From IMG/VR virus record IMGVR_UViG_2711768048_000001: a stretch of 24,179 nucleotides of DNA; one strand, 5' to 3'. This DNA comes from a virus. Taxonomy: Duplodnaviria > Heunggongvirae > Uroviricota > Caudoviricetes. Position numbers and translations under genes: made by a program. This document shows, one piece after another, positions 1-24,179 of this stretch (position 1 is the first letter of the stretch; the number at the start of each line of letters is the position of its first letter). The notes under the pieces were generated by a model, which ran no database searches, was not told where the DNA came from, and saw nothing but the letters and a program-made list of their open reading frames with translations.

Positions 1-299
1 TCTTCGGTGAACGCACTCTGGCCACACTGGAGTGTCTTCTGAGCCTGCTGTCGGCCTTTGAGGTCGTGGTATGGATGACGGATGGCTGGCCGCTGTATGA
101 ATCCCGCCTGAAGGGAAAGCTGCACGTTATCAGCAAGCGTTACACTCAGCGCATTGAGCGACATAACCTGAATCTGAGACAACATCTGGCAAGGCTGGGA
201 CGGAAGTCACTGTCGTTCTCAAAATCGGTGGAGCTGCATGACAAGGTCATCGGGCATTATCTGAACATAAAACACTATCAGTAAGTTGGAGTCATTACC
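1..299 (+). mobile_element. Partial IS1 insertion sequence (right-hand ~300 bp, cut by window edge); terminus ...taagttggagtcattacc ends at 299
   Basis: Translated frame 3..284 matches the C-terminus of IS1 transposase InsB (…[70 protein letters not shown]). The sequence after the stop matches the IS1 terminal inverted repeat as I remember it (ggtaatgactccaactta on the complement). Confidence 0.9.
3..284 (+). CDS. insB: IS1 transposase InsB, C-terminal part (5' end outside window)
   Basis: Frame is open from the window start. The track ORF 66..284 begins at an internal GTG, and upstream in-frame codons (FGERT…) continue the InsB sequence. Confidence 0.85.
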
Positions 300-300
300 C

Positions 301-437
301 AGAAGTATGGTGACAGAAAGGTCCGAGGGCGGTGTTTACCCAAAAGTGATTGGCCTTGATGCTTCAAGAATTGTTCCAACTGCAAACGAAAATCGACCCC
401 GTAACATTGCCTTTAATTATATCGTGAGGGCTGCCTG
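301..437 (+). pseudogene. Possible 3' remnant of an alternative tail-fibre C-terminal segment (stfE/Sv'-like), truncated by IS1
   Basis: The frame starting at 301 is open from the IS1 boundary to a TGA at 435..437 that abuts the tfa ATG at 438. In Mu G / e14 P cassettes this is where the alternate fibre exon sits upstream of the second tfa. Inference from position only. Confidence 0.3.
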
Positions 438-1043
438 ATGGATAAAGCTATATTAAATAAGGAACTCATCGCCACAAAGGCGGGAGATATTACCGTTTAT
501 AATTATGATGGTGAAACACGAGAATATATTTCCACATCAACCGAATATCTTGCTGTGGGTGTCGGTATCCCGGCATGTTCCTGTTTAGATGCTCCTGGCT
601 CATATAAAGCTGGTTATGCAATTTGCCGTTCTGCAGATTTTAACTCATGGGAATATGTGCCAGACCATCGCGGTGAAATCGTCTATAGCACCGAAACAGG
701 AGAATCAAAAGAAATCACAGCTCCGGGTGATTACCCTGAAAAGACAACCACTATCGCCCCGTTAACGCCATACGATAAATGGGATGGTGAGAAATGGGTG
801 ACGGATACCGAGGCACAGCATAGAGCAGCAGTAGACATGGCAGAAACACAGCGGCAGTCGCTGATTGATGCTGCAATGGTTTCCATTAGTCTGATTCAAC
901 TGAAATTGCAGGCCGGGCGGAAGCTGACGCAGGCAGAAAACACCCGACTTAACGCCGTGCTGGATTACACTGACGCGGTGATGGCAACAGATACCAGCAC
1001 CGCGCCAGATGTCATCTGGCCAGTTCCTCCTGAGACGGTTTAA
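438..1043 (+). CDS. Tail fibre assembly protein (Tfa, lambda Tfa / T4 gp38-chaperone family; TfaE-like)
   Basis: 201 aa with the typical Tfa C-terminal signature (…DKWDGEKWVTDTEAQHRAA…[16 protein letters not shown]). It runs opposite to the tail-fibre gene, as the U' gene does in invertible fibre cassettes. Confidence 0.8.
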   Translation: MDKAILNKELIATKAGDITVYNYDGETREYISTSTEYLAVGVGIPACSCLDAPGSYKAGYAICRSADFNSWEYVPDHRGEIVYSTETGESKEITAPGDYPEKTTTIAPLTPYDKWDGEKWVTDTEAQHRAAVDMAETQRQSLIDAAMVSISLIQLKLQAGRKLTQAENTRLNAVLDYTDAVMATDTSTAPDVIWPVPPETV

Positions 1044-1299
1044 TCTCAATCAGAATGGGTTCTCCCTTCTCGTTAACAGATATTTCCATTCCTTCAGGGA
1101 TTTCAGATGCAGTAAAAAACCAGTTATCTTCTGGTAATTCAACAGCCCCGGTCACGTCATGAAGACCGGGGATTACTTCAGTCAAAGTAACAGGATTAAA
1201 CAGGCGCACAATAAACCCTCCAGGAAAAAGCACTTGTTGATGGTGTTCCGTCGTACATCTGGCAGCGGACATAAAAACCGGTATTAGTGACCTGGTCAT
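1012..1299 (-). CDS. Hypothetical protein in the tail-fibre-chaperone position (TfaP position); family not recognised
   Basis: 95-aa ORF directly downstream of the fibre gene, overlapping its 3' end in another frame and converging on tfa. An in-frame stop two codons upstream of the ATG prevents extension. Call is by synteny only. Confidence 0.3.
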
Positions 1300-1828
1300 C
1301 CACGATCATTGAAACGTGAACGTTATTAGATGTGCCCCCATAATCCGTTCCTATTCTTTCCGCTATGCTGATAAAACGTGAAAGCTTAGGTAGCGCAATT
1401 GGATAAACGACTTTAGCCAGTCCATTATCATTAGAACCCCCCGTTCCAAAGACTTCTATTGCACCATCTGACCAGCGTATCCACGCACCATTGGCATTAG
1501 CTCCTCGCTGAATGACATATCTGGCTTCTCCCAAACCAAGGTTTTCGAGAGCCGTTTTCACCGTGCCATCCGATTTGATATCGCCAAACGGATTCTTGCG
1601 GCTTAACAGCAGCGCACGAAGCGCGGTAAGCAGCTGGTCGTGCCGCGCCTTCTCCAGACTGGCACCGGATGCCTCCACCACGCTGCAGAGTTCTTCCTGC
1701 AACATATCAAAGTAGTCATCATCCAGATCGGTGGCAGGCGTGCCAGTCTGGGGGTTACCACGGGTAAAACCGTTCTTACCCGCGCCGAACTTATCCTTCT
1801 GCGCGGTTTTCGTGTCTATACGATGCAT
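1196..1828 (-). CDS. Tail fibre protein, StfP-like (conserved N-terminal part with a short C-terminal segment)
   Basis: 210 aa starting [48 protein letters not shown]…, which I recognise as the conserved N-terminus of Mu/P2/e14-type fibres. GGAG ribosome-binding site 6 nt upstream of the ATG at 1828. Follows the baseplate genes. Confidence 0.7.
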
Positions 1829-1831
1829 GGA

Positions 1832-22151: not shown

Positions 22152-22181
22152 AATATCAGATTTACACGAAATATATGCTTT

Positions 22182-22871
22182 TTAATCCAGTTTTGCAATA
22201 CTTTGCTGTGAAAATGTCGTCTTTTGTTTTGAACGTGTTTTCGTTAAAAGCAATAAAGCTTGGCTATCAAGCTGTAGAAAAATGTGCTTCATTGCAACCC
22301 AGCGTTCAGTAAATGTCTCAGACCAGTTTTTTGATGTCACTCCCACCAGTGATGCCAGCTCCTGGTATTCATAGGTCTTACGCCCTGCCAGCTCGTTCTT
22401 CACATCCTGTGCCGCCAGCCAGATCAACTTCTTCAAACGTTCCAGTGTCTTACCTGCAATTTTTCTGGTACCCAACAGAGTCTTAAACTCGCTCCATGCC
22501 CACTGCGTTATGGCAACCTGATGCTCCCAGCGAACACTTTCGCTGTAACTCCACAGCAACCACGCTTTCTGATGTTCATCAAGAGACAGAACCGCGCGGC
22601 GCCATGAAGAGGTTGAGAACTCAACCTGGCTGACCAGTGCAATGGATGAACCTTTTGCGTACGACTGCTTACCGGAAATCGGCGGATTATCCAGCGTAAT
22701 CATCCTGCCAGTTACCTCATCCAGAATGCGCGGCTTCTTTCGTTTGTATGTACCAGTATCAAATTGAGCATGCTCCAGCCAGGCTTCAAGCTGGCCTTTC
22801 GTTACTCCGCTCAAATCAGCGGTAGCCACCATGAGTTGCTCGCGAACATACTGTAAATATTGGATATTCAT
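22182..22871 (-). CDS. Putative late-gene antiterminator Q (non-lambda type; assigned by synteny)
   Basis: 229 aa in the slot between ylcG/rusA and the lysis cassette. It contains no cysteine, so it cannot be a lambda-Q-type zinc-finger protein. Confidence 0.45.
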   Translation of the reverse strand: MNIQYLQYVREQLMVATADLSGVTKGQLEAWLEHAQFDTGTYKRKKPRILDEVTGRMITLDNPPISGKQSYAKGSSIALVSQVEFSTSSWRRAVLSLDEHQKAWLLWSYSESVRWEHQVAITQWAWSEFKTLLGTRKIAGKTLERLKKLIWLAAQDVKNELAGRKTYEYQELASLVGVTSKNWSETFTERWVAMKHIFLQLDSQALLLLTKTRSKQKTTFSQQSIAKLD

Positions 22872-23008
22872 GCGGCAGCTCCTTTCAGTGTTTTGGCGTA
22901 ATTCTTCAGTATTCGGTAATCGGTCAAAACAGAACCGGGAAAACGATATAAGCGCAGGCGCACCCAGCGGCGGCGAAGACGTTCTGCCATATAAGACTCA
23001 AACATCAT
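22868..23008 (-). CDS. ylcG: YlcG-like small protein (46 aa)
   Basis: Not in the track. ATG overlaps the rusA stop; its stop overlaps the Q ATG. Translation [46 protein letters not shown]. Same position as DLP12 ylcG. Confidence 0.6.
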
Positions 23009-23367
23009 TCATCTCCCAGTTCGGTGATGGTCAGCTCCAGCTTCCCACCTTTGGTAACGGGCATCTTCACAACGCGATAATCAACGACCTGAGCATCATC
23101 CAACCAGAAACCTGCTTTGGTGAGTGCGTCAAAAGCGGCCTTTTGTAGATTATCCAGGTCACGGCGACGGCGATCCGGCATGTGACACTCAATGCGGATT
23201 TTCACTGGCATAGCCAGGCCGATATCCAGCATTGCGTTTTTAATGATTTGAGCGACGTTATCGCGGTATGCCTGCCCCTCTGCGCTGACGTGCGTGCGCC
23301 CGCGATTATGGCGGTAATAGCGATTATTGCTCGGAGGCCAGGGTAATGTGATGCTGTAGGTATTCAC
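23005..23367 (-). CDS. rusA: Holliday junction resolvase RusA
   Basis: 120 aa [39 protein letters not shown]…, near-identical to my recollection of E. coli DLP12 RusA. Confidence 0.9.
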
Positions 23368-23654
23368 GCCTTAATAACCCCCTCTTTCAGCCAGATAACC
23401 TGTGTTCTCGCCATACCTTCCAGCGCGCATTCTTTTGCATATGCAGCATCGACAAAATGTGTGCGGCGGTCGATTTCGTCGTGGCAGGCAGAACATGCAA
23501 TGGTGGCAATCAGGTCTGGCGGTTTCGTACCGGTGCCGCACAATCCAGTCAGCCGGATATGTGCCAGTACAGACGTTTCAGGGTTGCCATTACATACGCC
23601 AGGGATTCTTACCTGGCATTCCCGACCACGCGCTGCTTTTCTCAAATCAGCCAT
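23364..23654 (-). CDS. ybcO: YbcO-like protein (DUF1364; Cys-rich putative nuclease)
   Basis: Start taken at the ATG at 23654 ([14 protein letters not shown]…) with AAGGAGG upstream, giving 96 aa; the track ORF extends further. Sits immediately upstream of rusA, as in DLP12. Confidence 0.7.
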
Positions 23655-23817
23655 GACTCCTCCTTGCTGCCAGTCGCAACCATTTTTTATCAACCAGGCT
23701 GGCGGTATATCCGAGCAGTGTTGGTATTTCGGAAGGCTTCAGCTCCGGTTTACGCTTACGACGATTTGGTACTCTGTAGATGTGTCCGTTCATGACACGA
23801 ATAAGCGGTGTAGCCAT
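23647..23817 (-). CDS. ninE: NinE-like protein (56 aa)
   Basis: Not in the track. Translation [56 protein letters not shown]; its start overlaps the upstream gene's stop and its stop overlaps the ybcO ATG. Confidence 0.6.
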   Translation of the reverse strand: MATPLIRVMNGHIYRVPNRRKRKPELKPSEIPTLLGYTASLVDKKWLRLAARRSHG

Positions 23818-24179
23818 TACGCCTCCTGTTTGTCGCGGAGCTGCTGGAACTCGCTGCTCTGCGGAATAGTCAGGTGGCAGCCAATATTCATCGCCCAGGC
23901 TTCAACCTTACACAGGAAGACATACATCTCTCCGGTATCAAGATCGGAGGTATGGCGTAACGACTGGATAGTGGTGATATCACCGGTTACGACATCAACC
24001 AGGTCTTTGGTTTCATAACCGAGATATGTGTGTTTGAGAGCATCTTTTACCCAAGCTGGAGTGGCGAACGTTTTACCCCTGCTGATGAGGTATTCACTGA
24101 TTTCGCTGTACCACATGTGGCTGAGTGCATTCTGGGAAAGACTGCGTTTCTCACGCCACGGTTTAAGCACCATGCGAAA
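23817..24179 (-). CDS. NinB/YbcN-family protein (N-terminus probably beyond the window edge)
   Basis: …KRSLSQNALSHMWYSEISEYL… resembles the RSLDQNRKLW motif region of lambda NinB; the frame stays open to the window end. Confidence 0.55.
   Translation of the reverse strand, partial: FRMVLKPWREKRSLSQNALSHMWYSEISEYLISRGKTFATPAWVKDALKHTYLGYETKDLVDVVTGDITTIQSLRHTSDLDTGEMYVFLCKVEAWAMNIGCHLTIPQSSEFQQLRDKQEA

Follow-up and report, generated by a model that had tools for sequence, protein, structure and literature searches.

The DNA examined in this study, IMG/VR virus record IMGVR_UViG_2711768048_000001 (24,179 bp, hereafter the window), most probably represents the late half (lysis, packaging, head, contractile tail and fibre) of an Escherichia coli prophage, a lambdoid temperate myovirus that belongs to the SfV/SfI/SfII/SfIV/e14 lineage; we assign this reading a probability of about 0.92. 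The element is an ordinary member of an already described prophage type that is common in E. coli and Shigella, and its late genes are all intact. The window is one entire contig of a draft E. coli assembly, and at each end the assembly broke at a repeat, namely IS1 to the left and a DLP12-like nin gene to the right. Among 50,697 phage records searched with megablast, the top matches were Escherichia phage vB_EcoM-689R6 and Shigella phages SfII, SfI, SfIV and SfV, with 97-98% DNA identity over approximately 17 kb. In pairwise blastn comparisons, SfII matched window positions 1524-6853 at 97.8% and positions 7519-19432 at 98.0% DNA identity, and SfV matched the same blocks with the exception of the portal-protease-capsid segment, a known divergence of that phage (PMC3851460). 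The e14 element of E. coli K-12 matched by the same method in three pieces (388-1021 at 89.7%, 1525-3194 at 96.2% and 16474-18211 at 97.1%), which correspond exactly to its remnants tfaE/stfE, jayE-ymfQ-stfP and aaaE-ymfR-beeE. At least 80% of the window was covered by one place in 130 of 5,426 complete E. coli genomes, where the best match had 98.1% identity over 22.6 kb, and the closest E. coli relative has 35 annotated proteins, each of which aligns to the window end to end without gaps.

An earlier note, made from the letters of the window, had described a mosaic prophage that joins a lambda-like nin/lysis module to an HK97-type head and a Mu-type contractile tail, and had placed it in the SfV/e14 lineage. 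Both the mosaic and the lineage were borne out, with 97-98% identity to the Sf phages and 90-97% identity to every overlapping e14 remnant. When the window was compared with the phage records, the best matches fell within the SfV group and no unrelated phage group appeared among them. The same architecture has been published for SfI, a mosaic with an SfV/e14 left half and a lambda right half (PMC3636060), and a lambdoid/HK97/Mu mosaic has already been described for the SfV group, as cited in PMC3636060 and PMC3851460. The genes present, their order, their integrity and their homologies were observed directly in the window, as were the IS1 junction and the cos sequence.

The packaging and head genes lie on the minus strand and encode, from right to left, an HNH endonuclease (19433-19783; PF01844 HNH, E 5e-15), a P27-family TerS of the 161-amino acid (aa) allele (18822-19307; Pfam Terminase_4), TerL (17075-18808; Pfam TerL ATPase and nuclease), the e14 ymfR homologue YmfR (16881-17063), the portal (15640-16881; Pfam Phage_portal), an S78 prohead protease (15012-15662; Pfam Peptidase_S78) and an HK97-type major capsid protein (13792-14997; Pfam Phage_capsid). 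The head and packaging proteins encoded at 13792-19307 share 99-100% aa identity with those of SfII. In addition to the Pfam assignments, tblastn identified four collinear homologues in HK97 (TerL, portal, protease and capsid, corresponding to gp2-gp5) with 26-36% aa identity, and the HK97-type nature of the head proposed earlier is upheld by both lines of evidence. No similarity to lambda head or tail genes was found by tblastn, the tail fibre assembly protein Tfa being the sole lambda match among the structural and fibre proteins of the window. The HNH protein is 90-91% identical at the aa level to the products of the terminal HNH genes of SfII and SfV, and a position beside the terminase genes and cos is the usual place for such a gene in HK97-type cos packaging modules. 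A 10-nucleotide (nt) cohesive end, TGCCCGCCCC, could be read directly at 19358-19367 (minus strand), where it is flanked by inverted GGGGCGGG. This cohesive end is identical to the 10-nt end determined experimentally for SfI (PMC3636060), and the SfV, SfIV and SfI records terminate at window positions 19356-19375. At the 3' end of the TerS gene (18808-18830, minus strand), an 8-bp insertion swaps the last five residues for two to give the 161-aa protein, and the TerS and TerL genes are spaced by 13 nt instead of sharing the ATGA overlap seen in SfII and SfV. This indel was considered as a possible lesion and rejected in favor of a very common natural allele, as the exact 161-aa form with the same TerS-TerL spacing was found in 15,358 blocks of the protein collection.

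The neck and connector genes (11771-13742, minus strand) are full length relative to SfII and encode a 66-aa open reading frame (ORF) product in the connector region (13542-13742), a head-tail connector (13216-13539; Pfam Phage_connect_1), a head closure protein (12809-13219; Pfam Phage_HCP), a tail completion/Neck1 protein (12328-12834; phrog_879) and a tail terminator (11771-12331; Pfam Phage_tail_terminator). The tail genes continue on the same strand with a Mu gp38-like DUF2635 protein (11592-11762; Pfam DUF2635, 42% identity to Mu), the sheath (10112-11608; Pfam Phage_sheath_1/1C/domII, 36% identity to Mu), the tube (9756-10112; Pfam Tail_tube), a tail assembly chaperone with a -1 frameshift extension (9338-9756; Pfam Phage_TAC_7) and the tape measure (7513-9345; Pfam PhageMin_Tail). 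The baseplate genes (1832-6829, minus strand), again full length compared to SfII, encode gp43/N for DNA circulation (5501-6829; Pfam DNA_circ_N), the gp44/P hub (4425-5504; Pfam GpP-like domains), gp45/V (3877-4425; Pfam Phage_Mu_Gp45), gp46 (3452-3877; Pfam GP46), gp47/baseplate J (2407-3465; Pfam Baseplate_J) and gp48/YmfQ (1832-2416; Pfam Phage_Mu_Gp48). Eight of these proteins (gp38, gp39 (L), gp43 (N), gp44 (P) and gp45-48) have collinear homologues in Mu with 29-42% aa identity by tblastn, which, together with the Pfam Mu families and the sheath and tube assignments, supports the earlier description of the tail as contractile and Mu-type. Near the end of the chaperone gene, a canonical -1 slippery heptamer (T_TTT_TTC) is located at 9505-9499 (minus strand); the stop codon of the -1 frame overlaps the tape-measure start, the predicted fusion protein is 139 aa long, and the arrangement is that of the conserved G/GT-type frameshift.

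The Mu-type contractile tail and baseplate, along with the invertible fibre cassette described below, are features that might be expected of a tailocin cluster or of a Mu-like transposable phage instead of a lambdoid cos phage. However, such an identity is exceedingly improbable and is already refuted by the genes that the window contains: a full HK97-type head and packaging module with terminase, HNH gene and cos is present, and the Q, nin and lambda lysis genes are lambdoid. No head protein resembles Mu, and none of the 39 called coding sequences encodes a Mu-type transposase, each having another assignment.

At the left end of the window, the expressed tail fibre is an StfP-like protein of 210 aa (1196-1828, minus strand; PHROG tail fibre families) composed of a constant N-terminal part of approximately 100 aa and a variable C-terminal tip of approximately 110 aa. 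The N-terminus is 92-98% identical to the fibres of SfII and SfV, and over its full length the protein matches that of one relative, locus L019, at 100% identity. The junction between the constant and variable parts of the gene contains a 26-bp Pin/Gin/Hin-type crossover site, TTCTCCCAAACCAAGGTTTTCGAGAG (1526-1551, plus strand), which occurs in one copy in the window compared to 0 expected, and DNA homology to SfII, SfV and e14 in each case breaks at 1524/1525, directly beside this site. TTCTCCCAAACCAAGGTTTTCGAGAG is found as an inverted pair 1.5-2.0 kb apart in e14 and in five further relatives whose cassettes are intact (loci L003, L008, L009, L013, L018, L019 and L024), and the partner site adjoins a serine invertase gene. 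The design of this fibre cassette is that of the e14 P segment and the Mu G segment (PMC4272514). The stretch at 1022-1524, which holds the fibre tip and a small ORF downstream of it, is common in E. coli prophages and has no near-identical match among the deposited phage records. The small ORF (1012-1209, minus strand; phrog_5400) is conserved, encodes 65 aa, is 100% identical in L009, L010, L013 and L019, and matches the tail fibre assembly family phrog_188 weakly; its product is possibly a mini fibre chaperone.

The alternative half of the cassette is represented by a 201-aa, TfaE-like Tfa (438-1043, plus strand; PF02413 Caudo_TAP, E 7e-30), which shares 89% aa identity with e14 TfaE and 89.7% DNA identity with e14, and by the last 46 codons of a truncated alternative fibre tip of the silent, Sv'-like kind (298-438, plus strand), which is cut by IS1. 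These 46 codons have 100% aa identity to the C-terminus of a 183-aa Collar-domain protein, annotated as 'phage tail protein', in the intact relatives L009 and L013, where that protein adjoins the invertase. The first 297 positions of the window (plus strand) hold the 3' part of IS1, consisting of the InsB C-terminus (PF03400 DDE_Tnp_IS1, E 3e-38) and the right terminal inverted repeat, and match IS1 copies from many E. coli genomes at 100% identity. The right terminal repeat ends ...GTCATTACC at 297, the terminal sequence ...GTTGGAGTCATTACC likewise closes at 297, and comparison with the intact relative L013 places the junction between IS1 and fibre DNA at exactly 297/298. The IS1-damaged fibre cassette reported in the earlier note is consequently real in that the junction is confirmed, but the damage is confined to the silent alternative tip, and the expressed fibre is complete. 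At minimum, the insertion would have removed the second of two host-range options offered by the fibre switch; inversion itself may have been lost as well, depending on the DNA beyond IS1.

The same cassette of 201-aa Tfa and 65-aa ORF (438-1209) is found in many P2-type prophages (loci L011-L017), and this identity could be taken to suggest that the window belongs to a P2-like prophage. Only the 1.2-kb fibre-tip cassette is common to the two, however, and the other tail, head and regulatory genes are of SfV, Mu and HK97 types; a P2-like identity has almost no probability and is already refuted, the sharing being horizontal exchange of fibre tips. The presence of this cassette in both P2-type and SfV-type prophages shows ordinary fibre-tip exchange between unrelated myovirus types.

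To the right of cos, the region is lambdoid yet itself mosaic. The bor/iss gene for a lipoprotein (20309-20602, plus strand; PF06291 Lambda_Bor) is a serum-resistance moron located between cos and the lysis genes, on the strand opposite to the latter; its product has 92% aa identity to lambda Bor and is 100% identical to a protein named Iss in RefSeq. The lysis genes are on the minus strand and encode Rz (20634-21095, 99% identical to lambda), Rz1 embedded in Rz (20693-20875, 59 of 60 residues identical to lambda), the endolysin R (21092-21568, 95% identical to lambda) and a LydA-like holin (21555-21860; PF16083) with no similarity to lambda S. By pairwise blastn, window positions 20255-21563 (bor, Rz/Rz1 and R) match lambda 45500-46809 at 94.1% DNA identity. 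Between the HNH gene and bor, approximately 520 bp (19784-20308) contain no annotated gene and no Rfam match, and include a palindrome with a 13-bp stem at 19900-19929.

The late antiterminator Q (22182-22871, minus strand; 229 aa, WP_053274865.1; PF06323, E 1e-94) falls in the Q82 family; Q proteins comprise three families unrelated to one another (PMC9388147). The protein encoded here is not similar to its counterparts in lambda, DLP12 (QuuD), SfV or SfII. Consensus scans of the minus strand identified a pR'-like promoter that overlaps the end of Q (22198-22170), a tR'-like terminator (22114-22088) and a second terminator-like hairpin before the holin gene (22000-21984). A promoter and terminator between Q and the holin gene is the standard lambdoid arrangement. 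Searches of the window with Rfam at the gathering threshold and with a tRNA scan returned nothing. In a permissive Rfam scan, a full-length match to isrJ, a Salmonella small RNA (sRNA) family, was seen at 22166-22087 (minus strand) below threshold (28.5 bits versus a gathering score of 37, E 0.016); the match lies where the leader transcript from pR' to tR' is predicted, downstream of Q. The Pas sRNAs (bioRxiv 10.64898/2026.05.13.724894) were also considered and set aside, as they are tied to Stx-like prophages of the Q-lambda type.

The remaining genes, all on the minus strand, form a nin region of ylcG (22868-23008; DLP12-type nin), rusA (23005-23367; Pfam RusA), ybcO (23364-23654; Pfam YbcO), ninE (23647-23817; Pfam NinE) and a partial ybcN (23817-24179; residues 32-151, cut by the contig end), where Pfam also gave a weak NinB match in the region. 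These genes (ylcG-rusA-ybcO-ninE-ybcN) share 96.9% DNA identity with DLP12 of K-12, and only NinE resembles lambda (47% over 36 aa). A lambda-type nin region was rejected in favor of the DLP12 type on the basis of that identity. The lambda-like nin/lysis module of the earlier note was therefore correct in part: R, Rz/Rz1 and bor are 94% identical to lambda and the lambdoid order of Q, late promoter/terminator and holin-endolysin-spanin is kept, but the nin genes are DLP12-type, Q comes from the Q82 family and the holin resembles LydA.

The structural module was thought from the outset to be complete, and the comparison with SfII agrees. The 23 packaging, head and tail proteins of SfII from TerS to gp48, as well as the HNH protein, align end to end and ungapped, and each of the 27 genes for packaging, structural and fibre-associated proteins reads through to one terminal stop, with no frameshift or internal stop. 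Further inactivating lesions in the structural genes were searched for and none was found, the TerS indel being a normal variant. In addition, all four lysis genes (holin, R, Rz and Rz1) and Q are intact. The near-identical relatives SfI and SfII have been induced as myovirus particles (PMC3636060). The late half shows no defect, and the prophage may be inducible.

A less likely explanation, although one that carries some weight, is that the prophage is a cryptic, non-inducible remnant like e14 or DLP12, in which early, immunity or integration functions beyond the contig have been deleted or disrupted by insertion sequence (IS) elements. Consistent with such decay, the contig begins inside IS1 and breaks off on the right within a DLP12-like repeat, IS elements and pseudogenes are frequent in close relatives (IS4, IS5 and an internal stop in ymfQ, CP104681; a split tape measure, L020), and e14 itself exemplifies decay in the lineage. 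However, 0 frameshifts, internal stops or truncations occur in the 27 structural genes, four lysis genes and Q across 24 kb, cos is intact while e14 by contrast keeps only three fragments of the region, and the contig ends are accounted for by repeat-induced assembly breaks as opposed to deletion.

The assignment of the window to the late half of an SfV/e14-type prophage is contradicted by nothing in the window but has several limits. The immunity, replication, recombination and integrase genes and the att sites lie beyond the contig, and the prophage could be deleted or otherwise defective there. The invertase gene and second crossover site are absent from the window and would lie beyond IS1, none of the deposited phage records contains a near-identical counterpart of the expressed fibre tip, and the promoter and terminator assignments are consensus matches only. 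Finally, the gtr O-antigen modification genes do not follow the fibre genes as they do in the Shigella Sf phages, and this end of the element is e14-like: no O-acetylase (oac)/gtr cassette was found downstream of the fibre within the window, where the invertible fibre cassette and IS1 are found instead. It is important to note that the gtr/oac cassette defines serotype conversion and not virion lineage.

From what is established for lambda, HK97, Mu and the Sf phages, a scheme for transcription, packaging and fibre switching in the late half of this SfV/e14-type prophage can be proposed. Upon induction, the Q82-family antiterminator would load at pR' just downstream of its own gene, and RNA polymerase would then read through tR' and all later terminators along a single long late operon on the minus strand, in the order holin-R-Rz/Rz1, HNH-TerS-TerL, portal-protease-capsid, connectors, sheath-tube-chaperone-tape measure, baseplate and fibre. 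The P27-type terminase and the HNH protein would cut the DNA at cos to leave the 10-nt cohesive end TGCCCGCCCC, and the DNA would be packaged into an HK97-type capsid that is then joined to a Mu-type contractile tail. The short fibre would set the host range, its C-terminal tip being part of an invertible cassette of the e14/Mu style; with IS1 in the silent alternative tip, the second option would be closed and inversion perhaps abolished.

These results allow a confident annotation of the contig: it is the late region of an SfV/e14-type prophage and contains cos, an invertible fibre cassette and a programmed frameshift. The value of these findings beyond annotation is slight, the element being a common E. 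coli variant of the SfV-group mosaic. The sole slightly unusual item, and the only element perhaps worth experiments, is a 665-bp moron inserted between the tape-measure and gpN genes (6854-7518, minus strand), which contains an ORF for 176 aa (6891-7421), has a GC content of approximately 0.40, and is bounded by consensus matches to a promoter-like site with an extended -10 (TG just upstream of the -10 hexamer; 7484-7457, minus strand) and to a terminator-like hairpin (6873-6848, minus strand). Pairwise blastn showed that the insert is not present in SfII, SfV or 689R6, and it is absent from the 50,697 phage records at both the DNA and protein levels. At 99% identity or higher, it is present in 174-179 of 5,426 complete E. 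coli genomes (approximately 3%), and its only other relatives share 52-59% identity, the named sources being Leclercia and Lelliottia; a 53%-identical homologue occupies the same slot, within a related tail module, in Leclercia prophages. The 176-aa product has a hydrophobic N-terminus and belongs to PHROG 5485, a family of unknown function, and no Pfam or PADLOC match and no known domain or fold was found for it. In the HK97 annotation, the gp15 moron likewise adjoins the tape-measure gene, and gp15 functions in superinfection exclusion. By analogy with HK97 gp15, it is conceivable, though rather unlikely, that the prophage expresses the 176-aa product as a new factor for superinfection exclusion or host modulation, with a function linked to the tape-measure/DNA-entry step.

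Compared to known systems, the window shows likeness at very different levels. The HK97 head homologues are collinear at 26-36% identity, a family-level relationship, and no HK97 siphovirus tail is found in the window. The Mu tail homologues are similarly distant (29-42%, collinear, family level only) and the fibre switch follows G-segment logic, while Mu transposition and head genes are absent. Lambda and DLP12 share with the window the order nin, Q, pR'/tR', holin-endolysin-Rz/Rz1, bor and cos, but no similarity exists to lambda Q, S, NinB-D or NinF-I, or to the lambda head and tail genes. A closer relationship is seen with e14, which shares ymfR, ymfQ, the stfP N-terminus, tfaE and fragments of the terminase, portal and baseplate J genes at 90-97% DNA identity, the same Pin-type crossover position in the fibre gene, and the same layout of alternative tip and Tfa. 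However, the expressed fibre tips of e14 and the window have only 56% aa identity, none of pinE, mcrA or the icd integration site of e14 occurs within the window, and e14 has lost nearly all head and tail genes while the window keeps all of them intact.

The closest relationship is with SfII, SfI, SfIV, SfV, 689R6 and 720R4. The window differs from SfV-group phages in having an e14-type invertible cassette cut by IS1 instead of gtrABC/O-acetylase genes after the fibre, in its Q82-type Q, DLP12-type nin, lambda-type R-Rz-bor and LydA-type holin, in the added 665-bp moron, and in a TerS that has 161 aa where theirs has 164 aa. Identity falls to 90-96% for three small head-neck proteins. Nevertheless, these phages contain the same packaging, head, neck, tail and baseplate genes in the same order, with 97-98% DNA identity and mostly 97-100% protein identity, and they also share the HNH gene beside cos and lambdoid late control and lysis, SfI having the same cos sequence. 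The closest complete E. coli relatives carry cI/cro immunity, O/P-type replication and int/xis genes, and the closest has a lambda-like early region with the integrase at thrW-proA, an integration site also used by the Sf phages (PMC3636060).

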